A stretch of 13,529 bases of DNA from the UHGV virus genome UHGV-0997613, one strand, 5' to 3'. Positions 1 through 10,198 of this stretch are shown in pieces. Origin of the DNA: a virus. Within the stretch, counting starts at the first letter, position 1; each line of letters begins with the position of its first letter. The notes under the pieces are model-generated. The model did no database searches. It worked only from the letters and a program-made list of their open reading frames with translations, and was not told the DNA's origin. Both the position numbers and the translations under genes were made by a program.

Positions 1-53
1 GTGAGTATCTGCATATGATGTCTGACGCTGGCATTCGCATCAAAGGAGAGTGA
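1..53 (+). CDS. 3' end of an upstream early-left gene (partial; reads ...EYLHMMSDAGIRIKGE*)
   Basis: Frame open from the window edge to TGA at 51-53. Its last 26 nt, including an AAGGAG Shine-Dalgarno and the stop, are repeated exactly at 522-547. Confidence 0.35.
   Translation, partial: EYLHMMSDAGIRIKGE
28..53 (+). repeat. 26-bp direct repeat, copy 1 (CTGGCATTCGCATCAAAGGAGAGTGA)
   Basis: Exact match to 522-547. It encodes a GIRIKGE* C-terminus plus the ribosome-binding site for the next gene. Confidence 0.8.
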
Positions 54-55
54 GA

Positions 56-547
56 GTGCAGATTTCACCGATTACTCTTCGTGTTGCGAAGGCGTTTATA
101 TCCAGACATCACCGACACAATAAACCCCCGGTGGGGCATAAATTCAGCATTGGTCTGAGAAATGATGCCGGAGAATTGATAGGTGTGGCGACAGCCGGTC
201 GACCTGTTGCACGACATTTGGACGATGGATTAACGCTTGAAGTAAATCGCACATGTACCACAGGAGAACGCAACGCTAACAGCGCGCTTTATGGTGCTGT
301 CTGGCGGGCAGCAAAGGCTATGGGTTATCAACGTTGTATTACGTACACCCAGGCAGATGAATCAGGAGCATCTCTCCGCGCAGCTGGTTTTGTTCGTGTG
401 AAAGAGCTTCCTCCAAGAAAAAGCTGGGCGGAATCAAGCGTCGCCCTGCGGAGTAAACGCGATCCGGTCGGAAACGGTGGTGTTCCTCGTGTGCTCTGGG
501 AAATCAGGAGAATGAGTACCACTGGCATTCGCATCAAAGGAGAGTGA
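56..547 (+). CDS. Hypothetical early-left protein, about 163 aa (possibly the conserved XF1763-like prophage family; function unknown)
   Basis: ORF 50..547. GTG at 56 is the likelier start because AAGGAG at 44-48 sits 7 nt upstream, while GTG at 50 overlaps the Shine-Dalgarno. The C-terminus duplicates the preceding gene's end. The family assignment is from memory only. Confidence 0.55.
   Translation: MQISPITLRVAKAFISRHHRHNKPPVGHKFSIGLRNDAGELIGVATAGRPVARHLDDGLTLEVNRTCTTGERNANSALYGAVWRAAKAMGYQRCITYTQADESGASLRAAGFVRVKELPPRKSWAESSVALRSKRDPVGNGGVPRVLWEIRRMSTTGIRIKGE
522..547 (+). repeat. 26-bp direct repeat, copy 2
   Basis: Exact copy of 28-53. It supplies the Shine-Dalgarno for the ATG at 549. 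Confidence 0.8.
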
Positions 548-548
548 T

Positions 549-1421
549 ATGACCACTATTACCAAAGAGCGACTGCTGACAATCAAGCAGTGGCGCGAAA
601 CATACGGACCTGATAGCAACGTTGTACTGCCAGCAGAAGAAGCGGAAGAACTGGCACGAATTGCTCTGGCATCGCTGGAAGCAAAACCAATAGGTGCATT
701 CCACATTGCAGAACAGCAAGTTGACGGCACAAGTGACTACCTCAAGGATGGAGAATGGCCTATTGATAATGGAATTATTGAGGTCTACGCCGCTCCCCCC
801 GTTCCAGTAGTACCGGAAGAAAAACCAATGCCTAATCCTCTTAGCATGTACGCGGTTGATGCTGTTGCCGCTATTGCAGAGGTGAGAGGCTGGAACGCCT
901 GCCGCGCCGCCATGCTTCAGTCCGGAAACTTTCGGGAAAACAAGAATTCGTCAACCAATAATTTTCGGGAAATCGCGGAAACGTCAACCAACTATCCGGT
1001 AATTCCTAGTGAGGTGTTGTCCGCAATCCAGAAGGTTGCCAAGATTCGTGCCGATTTCGATGATTTTGACGGTGACAGGCGAGGTATCGGTGATTGTCTG
1101 GATGAGGCTGAGCAAGAGCTTATCGTTACCATTAACAAATATGCCAGTCAGTTGGCAGCAGAACCTATAGCGCCTAATGACGTTCGAGAGCAGACAGCCA
1201 TTCCGCAAGTTCCGGTAACTCCGGATAGTTGGATAAGCTGTAGTGAGCGAATGCCGGATGACGGGCAGGAAGTTGTTGTTCAAACTCATTCAGGGTGGCG
1301 TTACATCGCATTCTACGAATCCCACTCTGGATTGTTCTATGACAGTCCTGAGGGTGATGTCGAGTATGTTCTCGTAACCCACTGGATGCCGCTACCAGAA
1401 CCGCCGCAGGAGGTGAAGTGA
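549..1421 (+). CDS. DUF551-type phage protein (lambdoid early-left operon)
   Basis: 290-aa ORF with AAGGAG 6 nt upstream. The C-terminal segment (WISCSERMPDDGQEVVV ... HWMPLPEPP) has the character of the DUF551 domain seen at the ends of lambdoid early-left proteins. Stop overlaps the next start (GTGATGG). Confidence 0.7.
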   Translation: MTTITKERLLTIKQWRETYGPDSNVVLPAEEAEELARIALASLEAKPIGAFHIAEQQVDGTSDYLKDGEWPIDNGIIEVYAAPPVPVVPEEKPMPNPLSMYAVDAVAAIAEVRGWNACRAAMLQSGNFRENKNSSTNNFREIAETSTNYPVIPSEVLSAIQKVAKIRADFDDFDGDRRGIGDCLDEAEQELIVTINKYASQLAAEPIAPNDVREQTAIPQVPVTPDSWISCSERMPDDGQEVVVQTHSGWRYIAFYESHSGLFYDSPEGDVEYVLVTHWMPLPEPPQEVK

Positions 1422-1705
1422 TGGACTCCTTCGCGAAATATACGATTATTGACTGGATAGCCTTCCTTCAGGTTTTGCTCATCTGGTTTTATATGGCTTA
1501 CAGGAGTGGACAGTGGATTGTCAGTGTAGCCTGTAGCAAGGGATGGCGTTGGTGGAACCGAAAGAATAAAAAAGCACTGGCATTGGATTCATTTTACGAA
1601 GCATTCAATCTTAACAGCCTTCAGCCTGGTTCTGTCATTGTAGTCACCACTCAAAGCGGCATGACGATACAAATTCACAAGCCAAAGGAGGAAGGTCGTG
1701 GCTAA
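1418..1705 (+). CDS. Small hydrophobic protein, 95 aa, one predicted transmembrane helix
   Basis: ATG overlaps the upstream stop, suggesting translational coupling. Hydrophobic stretch IIDWIAFLQVLLIWFYMAY. No recognisable family. Confidence 0.45.
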   Translation: MMDSFAKYTIIDWIAFLQVLLIWFYMAYRSGQWIVSVACSKGWRWWNRKNKKALALDSFYEAFNLNSLQPGSVIVVTTQSGMTIQIHKPKEEGRG

Positions 1706-1864
1706 CCTGCAACTTGCCGTCAAAGGTGAATACTTCGCAGATAGTTTTCCCCAAATATGGGGAGAATCCCGAATGGCGCGGCTTACAGCAGGATAAAGGC
1801 TACATGATTTGACAAATCCGCCAGAGCTATCGCATACTGACCGCACTACAACGTCAGCGGTCAA

Positions 1865-1892
1865 CCGCACCCGATAGCTTTGCGGCTTTTTT
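1865..1892 (+). terminator. Candidate intrinsic terminator after the early-left genes
   Basis: CCGCA-N11-TGCGG stem followed by CTTTTTTAT. A second hairpin (TGACCGC-N13-GCGGTCA, 1838-1864) lies just upstream without a T-run. Confidence 0.35.
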
Positions 1893-2046
1893 ATGCCTGT
1901 TTACAGGTATCGCCATATCTATGGCGGGTCGAGAGAGCCTAATAGAACACCCTTTCGGGAAATAAGCTCCGCCGTCTGACGCGGTAGTTGAAGCCCGCCA
2001 CCCCACTAAGGTGGCAGTCAATACTAAAACGTCAGGAGTCATGATT

Positions 2047-2670
2047 ATGGCTATTCAACTCATCCCCGTATTCAACGGCACTATCGCCAACGAAACCACT
2101 CTTCTCGTTAATGCTCGCGATTTACATACTTTTCTTGGGGTAGGTAAACGCTTTGCATCGTGGATTACAGAACGCATTGCTGAATATGGTTTCGTTGAAA
2201 ATCAGGACTATATTTTGGTTTCCCCAAATCGGGAAATCAAAGGTCGAGGAGGCGATCGCCGTAGCAAAGACTATCACCTCACCCTCGATACGGCCAAAGA
2301 AACTGCGATGGTCGAGCGCAACGAAAAAGGCCGCCAGATACGCCGATACTTCATCGAGTGCGAAAAGAAACTTCGCAGCATGCAACCAGCGCAGCAATTC
2401 ACAGACGAGGAAATCATCCTCCTCTGCTACATGCAGGTACAGATGGAGAATGCACAGGACATCTGCAAACGCCTGTACCCGATAATGAAGGAACTTAACT
2501 CATCATACGCGAGTAAGCTGTATGACATTGCGTTTGAAACCTTCTATGCGGTGACGAAAAACAGAGATGTACTGCTCAGGGAGGCGACACGACTTGACCA
2601 GGCAAGCGCCGTTTTCGAACGGGCAAGACCAATGTTGAAAAGCCTTCGGGCGAGACAATTCGAATTTTAA
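2047..2670 (+). CDS. AntA-like antirepressor-domain protein (N-terminal AntA-type domain, uncharacterised C-terminal half)
   Basis: ORF 2011..2670. ATG at 2047 is the likely start, with AGGAG at 2034-2038. The N-terminus (LIPVFNG...LVNARDLHTFLGVGKRFASWITERIAEYGFVENQDYILV...DYHLTLDTAKETAMVE...RRYFIECEKKL) resembles the AntA/AntB N-terminal domain as I remember it. Confidence 0.6.
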   Translation: MAIQLIPVFNGTIANETTLLVNARDLHTFLGVGKRFASWITERIAEYGFVENQDYILVSPNREIKGRGGDRRSKDYHLTLDTAKETAMVERNEKGRQIRRYFIECEKKLRSMQPAQQFTDEEIILLCYMQVQMENAQDICKRLYPIMKELNSSYASKLYDIAFETFYAVTKNRDVLLREATRLDQASAVFERARPMLKSLRARQFEF

Positions 2671-2675
2671 TCATC

Positions 2676-2700
2676 AAAGGAGCTTCGGCTCCTTTTTTGT
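2676..2700 (+). terminator. Rho-independent terminator
   Basis: AAAGGAGC-TTCG-GCTCCTTT stem-loop followed by TTTTGT, immediately after the stop at 2670. Confidence 0.7.
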
Positions 2701-2729
2701 TGGAGAAAAATCAACCACTACTCGTTCCC

Positions 2730-2765
2730 TTGCGAGTAATTGCGGAGACTTTGCGATGTACTTGA
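2730..2765 (+). promoter_or_regulatory. pI-like int promoter with a cII-type activator site (TTGC-N6-TTGC)
   Basis: TTGCgagtaaTTGC at 2730-2743, directly upstream of and overlapping the xis start. This matches the lambda pI arrangement, where the cII-dependent transcript begins inside xis so that Int is made without Xis. Confidence 0.5.
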
Positions 2766-2974
2766 CACTTCAGGAGTGGAACGCTCGCCAGCGACGCCCA
2801 AGAAGCCTTGAAACAGTTCGTCGATGGGTGCGCGAATGCAGGATATTCCCTCCTCCGGTTAAGGATGGAAGAGAGTATCTGTTCCACGAATCAGCGGTAA
2901 AGGTTGACTTAAATCGACCAGTAACAGGTGGCCTTTTGAAGAGGATCAGAAATGGGAAGAAGGCGAAGTCATGA
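2756..2974 (+). CDS. xis: Excisionase Xis (lambda/HK022 type)
   Basis: 72-aa protein MYLTLQEWNARQRRPRSLETVRRWVRECRIFPPPVKDGREYLFHESAVKVDLNRPVTGGLLKRIRNGKKAKS, matching my recollection of lambda Xis. It overlaps the int start by 23 nt, as in lambda. Confidence 0.9.
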   Translation: MYLTLQEWNARQRRPRSLETVRRWVRECRIFPPPVKDGREYLFHESAVKVDLNRPVTGGLLKRIRNGKKAKS

Positions 2975-4025
2975 GCGCCGGGATTTACCCCCTAACCTTT
3001 ATATAAGAAACAATGGATATTACTGCTACAGGGACCCAAGGACGGGTAAAGAGTTTGGATTAGGCCGAGACAGGAGGATAGCAATCACTGAAGCAATACA
3101 GGCCAATATTGAGTTACTCTCAAACAGCGGACGCAAATCACTGATAGACAGAATTAAAGGCGGTGACGCAATCACTCTTCATGTGTGGCTTGACCGATAT
3201 GAAAGAATCCTCACCGAAAGGGGGATCAGGCCGAAAACTCTACTCGACTACGCCAGCAAAATCAGGGCAATCCGAAGAAAATTGCCGGACAAACCGCTCA
3301 CTGACATATCAACGAAAGATGTGGCAGCAATGCTAAACACCTACGTAGCGGAAGGTAAAGCAGCTTCCGCAAAATTAATCAGGTCAACCCTTGTTGACGT
3401 TTTTCGTGAAGCAATAGCCGAGGGGCATGTGGCAACGAATCCGGTAACAGCAACCCGTACAGCAAAGTCAGAAGTAAGGCGCTCAAGGCTGACAGCTAAT
3501 GAGTATGTCGAGATTTACCATGCAGCCGAACCTCTCCCTATCTGGCTAAGGCTGGCGATGGATTTGGCCGTCGTTACAGGGCAGAGAGTCGGCGATTTGT
3601 GCAGAATGAAATGGTCAGACATAAACGACAACCATCTTCACATTGAACAGAGTAAAACAGGGGCTAAACTCGCCATTCCGCTAACGCTAACGATTGACGC
3701 GCTCAATATCTCATTGGCTGATACACTACAGAAATGCAGGGAGGCCAGCAGCAGTGAAACTATAATCGCATCAAAGCATCACGATCCGCTTTCCCCGAAA
3801 ACAGTATCAAAGTATTTTACAAAGGCGAGAAATGCATCTGGACTCTCATTTGATGGAAACCCGCCAACATTCCATGAACTGCGTAGCCTGTCAGCGAGGC
3901 TATACCGGAACCAGATTGGCGATAAGTTTGCTCAACGTCTTCTCGGGCATAAATCAGATTCAATGGCGGCGCGGTATAGGGACAGCCGTGGACGGGAATG
4001 GGACAAAATTGAAATCGACAAATGA
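2952..4025 (+). CDS. int: Tyrosine integrase, lambda family with HK022-type core specificity
   Basis: 357 aa, collinear with lambda Int (MGRRRSHERRDLPPNLYIRNNGYYCYRDPRTGKEFGLGRDRRIAITEAIQANIEL..., ends REWDKIEIDK). The catalytic region includes HELRSLSARLY and LLGHKSD. Residues at the lambda/HK022 specificity positions read P-K...K and R (PLSPKTVSKYF; ARLYRNQ), which is HK022-like from memory. Confidence 0.95.
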   Translation: MGRRRSHERRDLPPNLYIRNNGYYCYRDPRTGKEFGLGRDRRIAITEAIQANIELLSNSGRKSLIDRIKGGDAITLHVWLDRYERILTERGIRPKTLLDYASKIRAIRRKLPDKPLTDISTKDVAAMLNTYVAEGKAASAKLIRSTLVDVFREAIAEGHVATNPVTATRTAKSEVRRSRLTANEYVEIYHAAEPLPIWLRLAMDLAVVTGQRVGDLCRMKWSDINDNHLHIEQSKTGAKLAIPLTLTIDALNISLADTLQKCREASSSETIIASKHHDPLSPKTVSKYFTKARNASGLSFDGNPPTFHELRSLSARLYRNQIGDKFAQRLLGHKSDSMAARYRDSRGREWDKIEIDK

Positions 4026-4616: not shown

Positions 4617-6767
4617 TTACGGCGCACTGGATAAAATAGACTTCGTCTTCGTAACAATAACATCTACAAAATCACCTGCAGATATAGCTGATGGTACTGT
4701 ATCTGCAAGAGTAATCTTTCCTGAAGAGATGCTTTGCACATCCAATAATTTATTTTCAATCCCATCCGTATATACCAATTTGATATCACTGAATGGAGGG
4801 TAATAAGTAATGGCCCCTTGGTATACATATATTTCACTGCCTGAAATTGATTTCACTACATACCTTCCCCTTACAAGATTAATTTTGAGTTCAGATAAAT
4901 CTGTTTTATAACAGGTAATTCCTGAACCAATGTTAGCAATACTAATATCAGTATCACTATGATAAGTAATTGCTTTACCTTGCTTTAAAGTAAAAGTATT
5001 TTTACTTTTCCTTGGTAAGGATGTGCTATTTTTGTAATATCTACCAGTTAAGCATAGCCATGAAAATGCAGTATTCACTACATTACCACCAGAATACACA
5101 GCTAAACGAATTGCACTAACTGGAACTCCTTCATTATTAATCCTGATCTTAATGGAAGAAATATTAGTAGCAGTTCCATATCTATGGTTAGCAGAATCCC
5201 ATTGCATCGAAGAAGTTATGGCTTCTGTTTGTGAGGTTATGACATTCCCGTCTCCATCTAATGCATACAGGTAAATGCGAAACGATGCCGTATCTGCTGA
5301 GAATGTAAACATATCACCATTTCTTACTGGTATATCTCCCGATTCCCATAAAAGCCCAAAATCCCTCATAAAAGCAAACTTAGAAGAAACCAGGTGACGG
5401 ATATTATATAAACCATCTACATCTGTTTGATATGCTAATACACCAACTTCTCCATTGTTAGCACTGGATATAAATGGGGTGTTAGCATTTAAAGAAAACA
5501 ATGTTACTTCATCGGATATATTTTCCTGAATATGAAATACTGCATTCCCCTTGCCATTATCAGTTACCTCGACATAAGTGTAAGGTGATGGATTGTATGG
5601 CTCATTTGTATACGCAGGAGATGAAAGCCATGTAGCTTCAATTGAGTTATTCCACGTATATTCACCAAAGTTAATTATCAACTGTTGGTTAGTTGGGGAT
5701 GATGGATATCGTTCAAAACGAAACCCGTAGAAGTAATTGTTATCACCTCTTTGAATATCAATTTTACCTGCCCCCTCCATAGTTCCACCATAAAACTTAT
5801 TGTGGTTATGATGATATGGATTATCAGCGAAAATGATATTATTCGTACGATTCAGATAAAAATAGTTTTCATTTATCCATCCTTTCTCAACTCCAAGAAA
5901 ATGAATTGTATCGACCTTTTTCAGGTTAAAGGTTGAGTATGCTATTGAATAATCCGTCGATGCCACCGAAGCATTATAATTTGCATATAACTGTAAGTAG
6001 TCGCAACGCTCAATGTTTATATGCTGCCCTTTTGCCCCGATAATACGAATATCCGGTGTCGTTTCAGATGAAATACCAGAATTTCTGATAATCGTTCCGA
6101 AGTTTTGTCTTGGGTTGTTAGGGTTTGATGCATTCCCGCCAAGCAATACCCCTATTCCTGAGTGGGATATGGTAAAAACAGCATTGGTCATTTCGAGGCT
6201 GACATTACGAAGATTTAATGTCTCCGTAATAATAAAATTACCTTCCGCTCGTAATGTTCTGGATGATTCTCGTGCATATTCTGCAGCCAGGATCAATGCA
6301 GATGTATCATCTGTTATACCATCTCCTTTTGCCCCCCACCCTCTTACATCACAATCGTCCCTCCACCGAGATATCTGCAATTCAGGGTATTTTTTAGCTC
6401 CATCCTGGTCTTCTAATTGCTGCCGTAGTTGATCAGGGTCATACTTCAGCACATTAGGAAAATAGAACTGCTGCACACCATACGCATCGTATACAGCCAT
6501 CGAATGGCCTTGCACAGTTACGAATTTGGCAATCTGTCCATTATATACAGGGTAACCAGCAGCGTTAATGATGATTGGTTGCGATACAGGAACGTGAGAG
6601 CCGTCTTCGTTCTCCACATAAACCTGCACTTGATTCTGTGGGAGCGTGGGATCGGAATCTATCTTACCAATGAATATCTTGCCATTGCTTGCTGCCTGGA
6701 ATTTTCTGGCTAACGTAAATAGTTGACTTGGCATTGAAATTATAACATTTGGCACAATATTTGACAT
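4617..6767 (-). CDS. Tailspike protein: P22-type head-binding N-terminal domain fused to a right-handed beta-helix receptor-binding domain (pectate-lyase-like)
   Basis: 716 aa. The first ~115 residues (SMPSQLFT...[72 protein letters not shown]...NVLKYDPDQ) match the P22 gp9 head-binding domain pattern. The remainder begins [16 protein letters not shown], typical of pectate-lyase-3-like beta-helix domains, and is markedly AT-rich. Confidence 0.9.
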
Positions 6768-6793
6768 AGTGAATCTCTATTTAAGGAATGAAT

Positions 6794-7282
6794 ATGATTA
6801 CTCATAAAGAATTAACCTCTTCACTCAACTACAACCCAGAAACAGGCGTCTTCACTTGGAAGATAGCTTCTGGTAGCTCCAGTATCGGAAAGGTTGCTGG
6901 ATTTAAGACGAACTCACAGGCCGACTACTTATCAATACGGATTAATGGAAAATCGTATCTTTGCCACCGACTTGCTTGGTTTTATATGAAAGGATGCTGG
7001 CCTAAAGGGTTAATTGACCATATTAACGGGGTTAAAAATGACAATAGAATTTCAAACCTAAGAGAAGTAACCAGAGGTCAGAATAAAACCAACAGCGTTT
7101 CATCATCCAATACAGGTATAAAAGGAGTTCACCTTCTTAAAGGGAAAAACACATATAAAGTTATGTTCAAACTAAAAGGTAAGTCTATTTGCCTTGGGTA
7201 TACCGATGATATTGAGCTGGCCGAATTAATGTCTATTGCATTCAGGGAAAAATATCATGGCGAGTTTGCTTGTTTTAGATAA
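6794..7282 (+). CDS. HNH homing endonuclease with a C-terminal AP2-type DNA-binding domain
   Basis: ORF 6788..7282; ATG at 6794 is the likely start, with AAGGAA at 6783-6788. HNH_3-type motif CHRLAWFYMKGCWPKGLIDHINGVKNDNRISNLREVTRGQN and AP2-like GIKGVHLLKGKNTYKVMFKLKGKSICLGYTDDIELAELMSIAFREKYHGEFA. AT-rich, and divergent from the tailspike with only about 26 bp between the start codons. Confidence 0.85.
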   Translation: MITHKELTSSLNYNPETGVFTWKIASGSSSIGKVAGFKTNSQADYLSIRINGKSYLCHRLAWFYMKGCWPKGLIDHINGVKNDNRISNLREVTRGQNKTNSVSSSNTGIKGVHLLKGKNTYKVMFKLKGKSICLGYTDDIELAELMSIAFREKYHGEFACFR

Positions 7283-7350
7283 TGTCTGTCATTTAATTTG
7301 CTCCAGATGCAAGGAATCGCCGCAGCGTGGCTACGGTGAATTTTGGGCAT

Positions 7351-7374
7351 AAAAAAACCCAGCCGAAGCTGGGT
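7351..7374 (-). terminator. Rho-independent terminator downstream of ant (T_ant equivalent)
   Basis: ACCCAGC-CGAA-GCTGGGT stem. On the minus strand it is followed by TTTTTTT (the A7 tract at 7351-7357). It may also act weakly on the + strand for the HNH gene. Confidence 0.7.
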
Positions 7375-7392
7375 CGTTGCGTTGGTTATCTG

Positions 7393-8322
7393 TCAGTAGT
7401 TATGTACTGAAGGAGGTAATTCTTTATTCTTAAGTCTTATCCATGCAGAAAGATTCGTTGGTCCGTCTGGCTCATTGATATCAACATCTCGTGTGTGATT
7501 AATTAAAACATCTCTCGCCATTCCGATAACATACGAGAACTCATGACCGTAGTCGTAGCATCTGCCGGAATAGTTCGATTGAATTTGTTTTAGCGCCGGA
7601 TACAGTTCGCGGAATAATGCCTGTGAGCGGTTGGCATAATCCCATAACCATACAAGGCTGTTTGCTTCTTTTGCAGAAAGCTCGTTGGTTTTCTTCTCTT
7701 GTTTGCCAATGAACTCACCTTCAAGTGGAACTCGAGCTGCAAGTGACAGTGCTTCTGTAAACTGCTCCTCACTGATTTCTTTGTACGAACATCCAAAATG
7801 GGATTTCAGTGACGACCACATGGTAATCATTGCCTTCGCCTGTTTTTCTTTTGGCAGAGACTGACCGCGACTCATGACGAGTTGTTTAATGGCTTCCTGC
7901 TGTTCAGTGGTGATTTTACCCGGCAACGCTTTTTTAGCTTTGCGTGGGTTAACTACATGGCCTTTAGTCCAGTACTCGTAGAGTACATCGTCACACTCTT
8001 CCTGATACTGGATTACCTTGTCGCGGATTTCAGGGCGGACTTTGTTAGGGCTGATGGTTTGCAGCCAACCTGCAAGTTTGCGTAAAGCAAGACAGATAAC
8101 CAGACGACGCTGAGTATCGCCGGGGAGCTGAATCATCATTTCGATGATGCAGGTCTTAAATCTCTCCATCAACTTGCGGTGTTGAGACTGCCAAGTCATG
8201 CCCATTCCCTCAACGATAGGTTTCATTGGGGTGTACGGTTCGCCGTTGTGATTGACAACATAAAGCTCTGCGCCGTGGAATGGCACATTGATAGTAGATA
8301 CTGCTGTTGCTATACTTTTCAT
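7393..8322 (-). CDS. ant: Antirepressor Ant (P22 immI type)
   Basis: Large ORF in the P22 immI position after arc. ATG at 8322 ([30 protein letters not shown]...) has AGGAA 8 nt upstream. The ORF track extends to a GTG at 8388, which overlaps the stop of the 73-codon ORF and is a possible alternative start. Confidence 0.85.
8288..8316 (+). promoter_or_regulatory. Psar-like promoter inside the 5' end of ant, antisense orientation
   Basis: TTGATA (8288-8293), 17-bp spacer, TATACT (8311-8316). The predicted start near 8323 points across the ant ribosome-binding site. Confidence 0.5.
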
Positions 8323-8395
8323 GTCAATATTTCCTAAGACGATTTGTTGATACCGAAGCCCTGACTGTTCCAGCAGTTGGGGCTTCACTGTTTTT
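8323..8395 (+). ncRNA. sar: sar-like small antisense RNA (about 70 nt) complementary to the ant translation-initiation region
   Basis: The Psar-like promoter is followed about 32 nt later by an intrinsic terminator: stem GAAGCCCT (8355-8362) with GGGGCTTC (8379-8386), then ACTGTTTTTGT. The length and position agree with what is described for P22 sar RNA. Confidence 0.5.
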
Positions 8396-8606
8396 GTAAG
8401 TCACTGTAGTTATAAAGCCACTGACCACTCATTCTTGCTTTGATTGACTCTACTGAATCACGGCAAGGAATGATTCCACCTGACATCATTCTGATCTCCG
8501 TAAATTCACCGCTCCTTATCGACTCAATGCCATTAACGTTAACTAAAGATTTACCTCTACCAAGTGCATTCTCATAGCCAATCTCATCAACCTCGATAAA
8601 CTTCAT
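8385..8606 (-). CDS. Hypothetical 73-aa protein between arc and ant, translationally coupled to arc
   Basis: ATG overlaps the arc stop (ATGA), with GAGGGG 8 nt upstream. Its stop overlaps the GTG at 8388. No recognisable family. It sits where I recall P22 having only a short arc-ant intercistronic region. Confidence 0.4.
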
Positions 8607-8761
8607 ACCGTTATCCCCTCTCTCTTCAGGCTGTCCAGCACCCGCTTGTAAATCTCAGAGTTAACAGATCGCCCGTTCTCTTCAGCTACCTTGCGCACCA
8701 AATCCAATACTTCTTTAGGCCACCGCAAATTGAACTGCGGCATTTTGCTCATTCCTTTCAT
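8603..8761 (-). CDS. arc: Arc repressor (ribbon-helix-helix)
   Basis: [52 protein letters not shown] closely matches my recollection of P22 Arc. The start is the internal ATG at 8761, not the 73-aa ORF-track start at 8824. Confidence 0.9.
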   Translation of the reverse strand: MKGMSKMPQFNLRWPKEVLDLVRKVAEENGRSVNSEIYKRVLDSLKREGITV

Positions 8762-8777
8762 GTTCACCTCACAATAT

Positions 8778-8794
8778 AGGTCCACCGTGGACCT
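8778..8794. promoter_or_regulatory. Mnt operator (17-bp palindrome AGGTCCACCGTGGACCT; extended 21-bp palindrome 8776-8796)
   Basis: Read on the ant-sense strand this is AGGTCCACGGTGGACCT, identical to my recollection of the P22 Omnt. It lies just downstream of the Pant -10. Confidence 0.8.
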
Positions 8795-8800
8795 ATTGAG

Positions 8801-8829
8801 AATATAGTAGAGTGCTTCTATCATGTCAA
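8801..8829 (-). promoter_or_regulatory. Pant promoter with the Arc operator in its spacer
   Basis: On the minus strand: TTGACA (8829-8824), 17-bp spacer, TATATT (8806-8801). The 21-bp Arc operator ATAGTAGAGTGCTTCTATCAT occupies 8804-8824, matching the known P22 sequence as remembered. Confidence 0.75.
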
Positions 8830-9100: not shown

Positions 9101-9107
9101 GCGGGTT
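9088..9107. terminator. Bidirectional terminator shared by convergent mnt and the toxin operon
   Basis: AACCCGC-GATTAA-GCGGGTT stem flanked by an A6 tract on one side. This gives TTTTTTCTTT on the minus strand and TTT on the + strand. The mnt stop codon lies in the loop and the toxin gene stop abuts the stem. Confidence 0.6.
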
Positions 9108-9556
9108 TAGTCAAACATAGTGTTTCTAAAGTCTCTCGCATACCCTGCTAACACTCTCATTCTATTATGATTGTTAGCAGACATGTGAGCTACAGGGTGA
9201 AAAAGAGCAATCAATGAATACCTGTTCTCATCAAAAAGATTTTGTGCATAAACGAGAGCGGTATTGGATGTTTTATGCCACTGCAACTTTTGCGGTGTGC
9301 TGATATCTGTGCCATTTTTTATTGGCTCAAATTTATTTTCACCAATTGCTAAATGAAGGTGCATAAGACCTGCATCTTCAATATCAGGAGGCCGATGATA
9401 AGAGGTGTCTCTGCCAAAATAGCTGGGCAACGTTCCCGTAGACTTGTAGATGATAAAATCATCTACAAGTGTTTGTTTTAAATCAGGAAACTCAACAAAA
9501 ACCGGGGAGAAAAAATAGTCAAAACTATCCTGATTATATTCCACGGTTACTTGCAT
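9107..9556 (-). CDS. YafO-family toxin homologue (putative ribosome-dependent mRNA interferase)
   Basis: 149 aa. Segments FIIYKSTGTLPSYFGRD, MHLHLAIGENKFEP and LVYAQNLFDENRYSLIALFHPVAHMSANNHNRMRVLAGYARDFR align with E. coli YafO (FISYKRDGVLPDIFGRD; HIHLANENNPFP; LVYCQGAFDEQAWLLIAILKPEPHKLARDNNQMHKIGKMAEAFR) as I remember it. GAGGT lies 5 nt upstream of the ATG and overlaps the upstream gene's TGA. Confidence 0.65.
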   Translation of the reverse strand: MQVTVEYNQDSFDYFFSPVFVEFPDLKQTLVDDFIIYKSTGTLPSYFGRDTSYHRPPDIEDAGLMHLHLAIGENKFEPIKNGTDISTPQKLQWHKTSNTALVYAQNLFDENRYSLIALFHPVAHMSANNHNRMRVLAGYARDFRNTMFD

Positions 9557-9564
9557 GTTTTACC

Positions 9565-10131
9565 TCAGTGGAAGTTACCAGAGTGAAACACACGAGTCCC
9601 GTGCTCAGCAAGCGCACGCAAACCAGCCATATCTACGGAACTATCAAAAACAACCGGAACACATGAGCGTTGTTTAATAAGACTATTCAGGTTAGTTACG
9701 GCAGATCTAGCATCAGCAACAACGATATAGATATCTCTTGCGATCTCTTTAAAATCAGCAGAAGCTTCTTTGAATACCGATTTCATTGCCCCTTCAAGTC
9801 CTCTCAATTGATGCTCTATCAATCGAGACTTTTCTGGTTCAATGATAGACAACACATTGTCTACATTCTCATCGGTAGCGTTTGCAAGAACACGATAAGC
9901 GTATTTCAGCATTCGAGACAATTCTTTAATCGAAGACACCGCCTCATGAAGCTCATCATTAGCCCGTTCACTGCTGAATGAGGATTGATGGTAAGCGTGC
10001 TGAACGTTATCAGTAACAACCACCTCACAACTGAACGCAGAAGCTTGCTGTAATAGCAAACCTATTGCGACTCCAGCTTTGGCAGCGTTCAAGCTAAACA
10101 TTTCATCAATCCCATTAGTCTCATTGCTCAT
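9565..10131 (-). CDS. Hypothetical 188-aa protein, first gene of the toxin operon (candidate non-canonical antitoxin or partner)
   Basis: ATG at 10131 (MSNETNGIDEMF...) has AAGGAGG 5 nt upstream; the ORF-track start at 10161 lacks a Shine-Dalgarno. Predicted mostly helical. No similarity to YafN, RelB or Phd-type antitoxins that I can see. Confidence 0.6.
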   Translation of the reverse strand: MSNETNGIDEMFSLNAAKAGVAIGLLLQQASAFSCEVVVTDNVQHAYHQSSFSSERANDELHEAVSSIKELSRMLKYAYRVLANATDENVDNVLSIIEPEKSRLIEHQLRGLEGAMKSVFKEASADFKEIARDIYIVVADARSAVTNLNSLIKQRSCVPVVFDSSVDMAGLRALAEHGTRVFHSGNFH

Positions 10132-10198
10132 ACAAACCTCCTTCTTATCGGAGATTATCAATAGCTATGTATCCATTGAATACACGCTATGCGCAGTA

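Follow-up and report, generated by a model that had tools for sequence, protein, structure and literature searches.

The DNA analysed here, hereafter the window, comprises 13,529 nucleotides and is a P22-like (Lederbergvirus-type) segment in the orientation reverse to the usual P22 reading (Table 1). The interval 6768-7392 extends exactly from the tailspike start to the ant stop and contains, as stated in the original prediction, an AT-rich gene (GC content of 0.376 as compared to 0.452 for ant and 0.438 for the whole window) which is located on the opposite strand between the ant terminator and the tailspike gene, with 26 nt between the two start codons. The ant terminator sequence is identical to the terminator annotated in P22 and epsilon34. 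Beyond ant, arc/mnt-like genes, a YafO-like ORF and ejection-protein genes are present: arc (8603-8824, minus strand) codes for an Arc domain with an N-terminal extension, and between arc and ant lies an extra 73-aa ORF (8385-8606, minus strand) without family match, which is also found in loci L027 and L028. The YafO-family toxin-like ORF of the ant moron (9107-9556, minus strand; Pfam YafO_toxin, 3e-22) reached 79 bits with NCBIfam, under the equivalog cut-off of 153 bits; for the adjoining ORF 9565-10161 there was no family match and an antitoxin was not identified. The early-left region additionally holds a Mom-like ORF (50-547, plus strand; Pfam Mom, 5e-5, under the cut-off) and a second antirepressor-like gene (2011-2670, plus strand; AntA and P22_AR_C).

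Table 1. Features of the window around the tailspike start and the ant gene (positions in the window).
Feature	Position	Strand	Remarks
Early-left genes, xis, int	50-4025	+	
Tailspike gene	4617-6767	-	716 aa; start CAT 6765-6767; Pfam Head_binding aa 1-113, 2e-64
Tailspike remainder (end of head-binding domain and receptor-binding module)	4617-6459	-	recipient-backbone part; 99.5% identical to AST20
Putatively co-converted head-binding part	6460-6623	-	intermediate divergence from the near-isogenic HNH-free allele
Cassette-borne replacement tailspike 5' end, codons 1-48	6624-6767	-	
Weak candidate HNH promoter	6734-6761	+	TTGAAA-16-AATATT; consensus scan, 9/12 matches; inside the replacement tailspike 5' end
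Divergent spacer, 26 nt	6768-6793		holds the ribosome-binding sites of both genes
HNH-AP2 endonuclease gene	6794-7282	+	162 aa; stop TAA 7280-7282 inside the relic
Relic mini-ORF MTDII*	7275-7292	-	5 codons
Ancestral tailspike start relic	7279-7292	-	ATGACAGACATTA(T/C)
'Boundary sequence'	7293-7355	-	conserved; with orphaned ribosome-binding site GGAG (complement of 7301-7304); annotated bsq1 in CUS-3
ant intrinsic terminator	7346-7375	-	hairpin 7375-7356 and T-run; terminator scan
Antirepressor gene ant	7393-8322	-	Pfam P22_AR_N and P22_AR_C; probable start ATG 8322-8320
sar antisense RNA	8324-8389	+	Rfam, 62 bits; immediately before the ant start; same arrangement in P22

For the endonuclease gene, ATG 6794 is the likelier start because AAGGA (6783-6787), 6 nt upstream, is well spaced and most NCBI records also start there; the alternative start at 6788 would yield 164 aa. 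On the minus strand, GAG located about 9 nt upstream of the tailspike ATG represents the tailspike-side ribosome-binding site. The encoded protein matched Pfam HNH_3 (PF13392) with E = 4e-15 and 55.5 bits as compared to a cut-off of 24.8 (residues 57-99) and PHROG 99 'HNH endonuclease' with 1e-60, and in an alignment of 47 sequences (the window protein and 46 homologues) the residues H58, D75, H76, N88 and N100 were invariant, with N84 and N97 at least 90% conserved. The catalytic motif is therefore intact and the HNH identity proposed originally is confirmed. Moreover, the DH...N...N residues line up with those of I-HmuI (PDB 1u3e; phmmer, 8e-4). The AF2 model of the protein, computed from an alignment in which the sequence of the homologue from phage Kapi1 had been left out, reached a pLDDT of 93.7, and its best PDB match in Foldseek was again 1u3e (prob 1.00, 102 columns, rmsd 3.5), so that the beta-beta-alpha-metal fold is present in the predicted structure. 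The C-terminal part was modelled as three strands (112-115, 120-127 and 130-137) followed by a helix (140-158), and Foldseek related this domain to AtERF1 (1gcc; TM by target 0.70, rmsd 1.6, prob 0.97) and TEM1 (7et5; rmsd 1.7), with weak E-values of 0.2-0.5 for these AP2 matches. Pfam AP2 (PF00847) did not match the window protein even at E <= 10, and the Kapi1 homologue reached 27.6 bits, under the cut-off of 33.3; a precomputed PF00847 match is present in about half of the full-length homologues. The AP2 domain as claimed in the original prediction is thus backed by the predicted fold and by AP2-bearing homologues, and not by a Pfam match of the protein itself, and on this basis the label HNH-AP2 is reasonable.

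The gene is under purifying selection: among 22 copies, 15 polymorphic sites were found, 10 synonymous and 5 non-synonymous (binomial P of about 8e-4), and neither these nor 12 further copies contained a stop codon. In the assembly collection, 541 indexed blocks contain the exact 162-aa protein, the members of its 90% cluster are annotated from E. coli, Salmonella, Shigella and Providencia, and the next relative is only about 50% identical. A scan of the collection with one genome per species revealed distant relatives only (33-48% identity), none of which is located beside a tailspike gene.

With respect to tailspike expression, it had been proposed originally that transcripts must read through the ant terminator and antisense across the endonuclease gene or, alternatively, that a tailspike promoter lies in the region. 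The first part stands: in P22, transcription of the tailspike gene by late-operon read-through is established, with antiterminated late transcripts passing the ant terminator, so no new tailspike promoter needs to be invoked. Promoter-like matches in the region did not exceed chance (6 as compared to a shuffled expectation of 3.3 ± 1.7), and the terminator scan detected no terminator-like site on the minus strand within the cassette. Late transcripts would accordingly pass the ant terminator and about 0.5 kb antisense to the nuclease gene and support tailspike expression as in P22. In the same scan, no terminator-like site was present on the plus strand after the HNH gene, and therefore HNH transcripts may run antisense into ant.

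In P22, epsilon34, CUS-3 and N7, no gene is located between ant and the tailspike gene. The E. coli prophage AST20 carries a near-isogenic HNH-free allele from which window positions 6768-7279 are absent, and the comparison of related phages suggested originally could hence be carried out for presence and absence as well as for the exact breakpoints. Relative to AST20, the window showed 23 mismatches in 740 nt at 7280-8019, which includes the 3' part of ant, and, on the tailspike side, 59 mismatches in 138 nt at 6630-6767, 25 in 170 nt at 6460-6629 and 9 in 1843 nt at 4617-6459, i.e., divergence declines along the tailspike gene away from the cassette from 43% to 15% and 0.5%. Judged from these alignments, 6768-7279 is an insertion. 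A sharp mosaic boundary is found inside ant at about 8020: identity with AST20 drops there from 96-98% (up to about 8016) to about 55%, which means that the N-terminal domain of ant has been exchanged.

The insertion point is marked by a relic of the interrupted gene. At the HNH stop codon, positions 7280-7304 consist of TAATGTCTGTCAT followed by TTAATTTGCTCC; read on the minus strand, this is the genuine tailspike start with its ribosome-binding site as HNH-free phages have it (GGAGCAAATTAA ATGACAGACATTA). In CUS-3, N7 and epsilon34, the tailspike gene actually starts with the relic sequence ATGACAGACATTA, and the relic is kept in 14 of 14 cassette loci; alignments to roughly 700 E. coli genomes begin exactly at 7280. 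Given this identity, the cassette interrupts the ancestral tailspike ORF behind its nt 13-14 and does not lie in the spacer: of the original proposal, the inserted gene is supported by the empty allele in AST20, whereas the intergenic position is not. The old ribosome-binding site and start codon are a dead relic beside the ant terminator, and the boundary sequence containing them shows a conservation of 0.9-1.0 in 104 distinct HNH-free loci. The insertion explains the orphan start codon and ribosome-binding site beside the ant terminator, which is useful for annotation, as well as the unusual N-terminal tailspike variants in cassette-bearing prophages.

The cassette consists of the HNH-AP2 gene oriented opposite to the late operon, the 26-nt spacer and its own complete tailspike 5' end. 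This replacement 5' end is about 57% identical on the DNA level to the HNH-free allele of AST20 and 50-70% identical to CUS-3 and N7, and in IMG/VR its sequence was found in 9 contigs only, all of which carry the HNH gene. A search for a donor of the replacement tract returned Salmonella phage MS2 LVA as the sole record (DNA identity of 74%), which is not the donor itself. MS2 LVA is HNH-free and its tailspike N-terminus is very similar to the replacement tract on the protein level; by this likeness, the tract seems to be part of a divergent tailspike lineage occurring in nature and to have moved along with the gene. For the HNH gene, a distant DNA search of isolated phages yielded two short matches of 72-75% only and no donor.

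The distribution of the gene was surveyed in 5426 complete E. coli genomes, in which a junction was counted as uninterrupted when at least 80% of it was present. An uninterrupted junction was found in about 579 genomes, the window-type HNH gene (99% identity) in 7, and two further cassette types, described below, in 15 genomes each; the three types together occupy about 6% of the junctions. Since the window-type gene is present in 7 of about 600 junction-bearing genomes, a long-standing conserved component is refuted. For the same reason a function in the phage life cycle, either in packaging as for the packaging-associated HNH protein gp74 of HK97 or as a factor for tailspike expression, is hardly credible: the gene does adjoin an essential virion gene, but it is absent from about 94% of the related prophages, including the near-isogenic AST20, and from P22, CUS-3, N7 and epsilon34, its neighbors are tailspike and ant and not the terminase genes, and it belongs to the HNH_3/AP2 family and not to the HK97 type.

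Among the 14 cassette loci, the region corresponding to window 6630-7305 was 97-100% identical, the head-binding region 6434-6634 was 84-96% identical, and everything beyond was unrelated. The 26-nt divergent spacer was 100% identical in these loci. On the tailspike side, the receptor-binding modules are of at least ten kinds, in tailspikes of 555-815 aa; the opposite flank holds one of several ant types, mnt alone or an ejection-protein gene. The uniform cassette with polymorphic flanks and the divergence gradient relative to AST20 are compatible with co-conversion, without thereby proving a dependence on the nuclease. L005 (E. coli YZ22PE165), L024, L026 and L031 are ant-less P22-like prophages in which cassette, relic and ribosome-binding site are all present; the cassette there lies beside an ejection-protein gene or mnt, which indicates linkage to the tailspike start and not to the ant terminator. 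The endonuclease ORF is also intact in decaying prophages: in L031 an identical endonuclease accompanies a tailspike gene truncated by IS-type transposase genes, and in L023, L029 and L030 an identical endonuclease is present where no tailspike gene was called.

The association of one cassette with many modules bears on the suggestion, made originally, that the endonuclease promotes exchange of the adjacent receptor-binding module. The association itself was observed, but promotion by the nuclease does not follow from it. Spread of the cassette via recombination in the conserved head-binding domain would give the observed pattern of one cassette beside many modules, and HNH-free alleles are equally mosaic at this position. 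Moreover, HNH-free phages likewise show a conservation of at least 90% in both flanks (head-binding domain and boundary sequence); ordinary homologous recombination could therefore spread even a passive cassette among backbones, and general recombination could account for much of the reassortment. In one alternative, the nuclease is inactive or irrelevant, and a single old illegitimate insertion has been shuffled among phages by nothing but general homologous recombination in these flanks. The high conservation of these flanks in all P22-like phages and the low frequency of about 6% speak for this alternative, but the catalytic residues are intact, the polymorphisms show a synonymous excess and stop codons are lacking throughout the 22 and 12 copies. 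The low total frequency also counts against an efficient homing element.

Pattern scans of IMG/VR for the relic followed by anything but its normal continuation returned the window type, a second type and a third HNH-AP2 type. The second is represented by Kapi1_066, the annotated HNH endonuclease of Escherichia phage vB_EcoP_Kapi1 (MT813197), which is found in the same place and is 42% identical to the window protein; the third, from an E. coli NRG 857C prophage and the IMG/VR loci L048, L052 and L190, shares 35% identity with the window protein and 42% with Kapi1_066. The junction, ATGACAGACATTAY directly followed by CTA, is common to all three types and lies after nt 14 of the ancestral tailspike ORF; all three genes are antisense to the tailspike gene and end with ...AGR-TAA, the TAA being supplied by the relic. 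Each type carries a tailspike start of its own, in which the tract diverged from the CUS-3/N7-type allele measures about 144 nt (window), 78 nt (Kapi1) and 36 nt (third type), and each is linked to many receptor-binding modules, some of which are common to different types. The common CTA and ...AGR-TAA ending would be expected from a single origin, as held by the passive-insertion alternative; one ancient insertion with subsequent divergence and repeated site-specific insertion account for it about equally well. By contrast, that a full-length ORF has been kept in all three lineages, which are only 35-42% identical, is at odds with an irrelevant nuclease. Furthermore, copies of the third cassette which are 98-99.8% identical to each other adjoin either of two 14-nt relics, ATGACAGACATTAC or ATGTCAGATATCAC, and the upstream contexts differ as well. 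Since crossovers in shared flanks cannot make a new relic, the position of the junction appears to be fixed and the relic to derive from the recipient; this two-relic joining is the best evidence for, and argues for, position-specific insertion. Passive spread without a working nuclease is thus regarded as quite improbable. A P22-type start relic (ATGACAGACATCAY followed by CTA) was also sought in IMG/VR, and no match was obtained.

Some observations on uninterrupted tailspike starts may be added. The third cassette bears the start allele ATGACAGATTCAATAAATGCC, coding for MTDSINANV (IMG/VR loci L183-L228), which also occurs in 40 HNH-free contigs directly after a normal ribosome-binding site; for this reason, the notion that the tailspike start of the third cassette had been recoded for immunity was dropped. 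As compared to a common HNH-free allele, the MTDSINANV allele differs only at nt 9-15, where CATTACA is replaced by TTCAATAAAT precisely at the insertion point; this allele could be resistant, or it could be a footprint left by the loss of an endonuclease. Across 111 HNH-free IMG/VR loci, conservation was at least 90% throughout the first 340 nt of the tailspike gene except for one patch at nt +20 to +36 (window positions of about 6732-6748), just downstream of the insertion point, with the allele classes GTGATCGTATCG and GTTGTAGTGAGT. Additionally, the ant-tailspike spacer is longer by 77-110 nt in some phages including P22 (L007, 3037-3204; L181, i.e., EC581), the extra segment being bounded by the direct repeat AAAATTCACCGTAGCCA and containing a second hairpin. 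The extra 77 bp seen in some uninterrupted junctions (E. coli EC581) had been considered as a scar of endonuclease loss, which was rejected as they represent the P22-type duplicated spacer with its second hairpin.

Overall, we consider it probable that window 6624-7279 is a free-standing homing-endonuclease cassette targeting the conserved tailspike start. Following this, we propose that the nuclease is made from its own promoter and meets an HNH-free relative in the same cell, be it upon co-infection or when a superinfecting or induced phage encounters a prophage. The nuclease would recognize the highly conserved tailspike start region of the relative and cut or nick it near nt 14 of the HNH-free tailspike ORF, the cut site inferred from the position of the junctions. 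Recombinational repair with the cassette-bearing genome as template would then copy the cassette and, by co-conversion, a variable part of the conserved head-binding domain, while the recipient would retain its own receptor-binding module. The carrier itself would be immune, as the cassette divides its site and the tailspike start in use there is altered in sequence (59 of 138 nt). Under such homing, the occurrence of one cassette with many modules reflects spread into phages which keep their own module and need not mean that the nuclease moves modules.

A domesticated prophage weapon, expressed by the lysogen, that cleaves HNH-free relatives, whether incoming or co-resident, at their tailspike start and is kept for exclusion or competition instead of for its own spread would be compatible with homing, and we regard it as unlikely. 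The purifying selection on the ORF, its orientation against the late operon and its location in the ant moron, a region with independently expressed accessory genes (PMC2629481), would suit such a role, as would the fact that Kapi1_066, which is not discussed in the Kapi1 papers, is not among the genes reported as undetected by RNA-seq of the Kapi1 lysogen. However, among the PADLOC defence models the protein matched only the generic model 'HEase homing endonuclease' (7e-7, 27 bits), and the relic, the replacement 5' end and the common junction are features of insertion and mobility and not those of a defence gene.

Going beyond the homing cassette itself, it may tentatively be suggested, with doubts prevailing, that the translation start of the P22-like tailspike gene is a dedicated homing site for which at least three deeply diverged HNH-AP2 endonucleases with the same cut position compete, each with its own replacement start. 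If so, the breaks would make the boundary between the ant moron and the head-binding domain a recombination hotspot, which would help to reassort receptor-binding modules with virion and immunity modules; prophages would be able to damage superinfecting relatives, and the MTDSINANV allele with its TTCAATAAAT change would represent a stage of a homing cycle that is resistant and free of the endonuclease. For the study of mosaic genome evolution and tailspike module exchange, P22-like phages serve as a classic model, and the ant-tailspike boundary sequence has so far been treated as a passive site of homologous recombination; endonuclease cassettes aimed at this boundary would add an active and testable source of breaks there. 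As Kapi1 is both cultivable and cassette-bearing, direct cleavage assays and crosses are possible.

In a literature search, no paper on an endonuclease at the tailspike start of P22-like phages was found. HNH-AP2 homing endonucleases with an N-terminal HNH and a C-terminal AP2 domain were described as a family by Magnani et al. (2004), as cited in PMC10448857. The 'IPA-HNH' genes of ICP1-like phages are free-standing and located beside essential genes at genetic-exchange boundaries, and the window gene shares with them the HNH-AP2 architecture and the free-standing position beside an essential gene (PMC10448857). By contrast, the IPA-HNH domains are too divergent for Pfam HNH_3, which the window protein matches directly, and they were described in lytic phages, whereas the host of the window gene is a temperate P22-like phage and its site the tailspike start. 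The closest parallels in position are the Kapi1 and third-type cassettes, which agree with the window in junction, antisense orientation, AGR-TAA end, possession of an own 5' end and association with many modules, and differ from it by protein identities of only 42% and 35% and by shorter diverged tracts. With I-HmuI of phage SPO1, the HNH motif and the N-terminal sheet align. I-HmuI is intron-encoded, possesses a helix-turn-helix C-terminal domain and nicks one strand, whereas the window gene is free-standing and its product has a predicted AP2-like C-terminal domain. The free-standing endonucleases SegF, SegG and MobE of T4 perform 'intronless homing' and cause marker exclusion with co-conversion, as shown experimentally; the Seg proteins belong to the GIY-YIG family, and the T4 genes are intergenic and lack a replacement gene start. 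Similar to these, the window carries a free-standing gene between or within conserved genes, with an altered presumed target in the carrier and flanks that appear to be co-inherited in a gradient; unlike these, the window nuclease belongs to a different nuclease family, its gene is inserted inside an ORF and brings a replacement gene start, and its homing activity is proposed from sequence. In Aeromonas phage Aeh1, MobE splits nrdA into 'genes in pieces', both of which are expressed and assemble. As in Aeh1, the endonuclease gene of the window lies inside an essential ORF that still functions; contrarily to Aeh1, a relic of 4 codons only is left and the whole new 5' end is provided by the cassette. 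Thus, the architecture is that of the known HNH-AP2 homing family, and what is noteworthy at the tailspike start is the insertion inside an ORF with a replacement start and the presence of three diverged lineages at one site.
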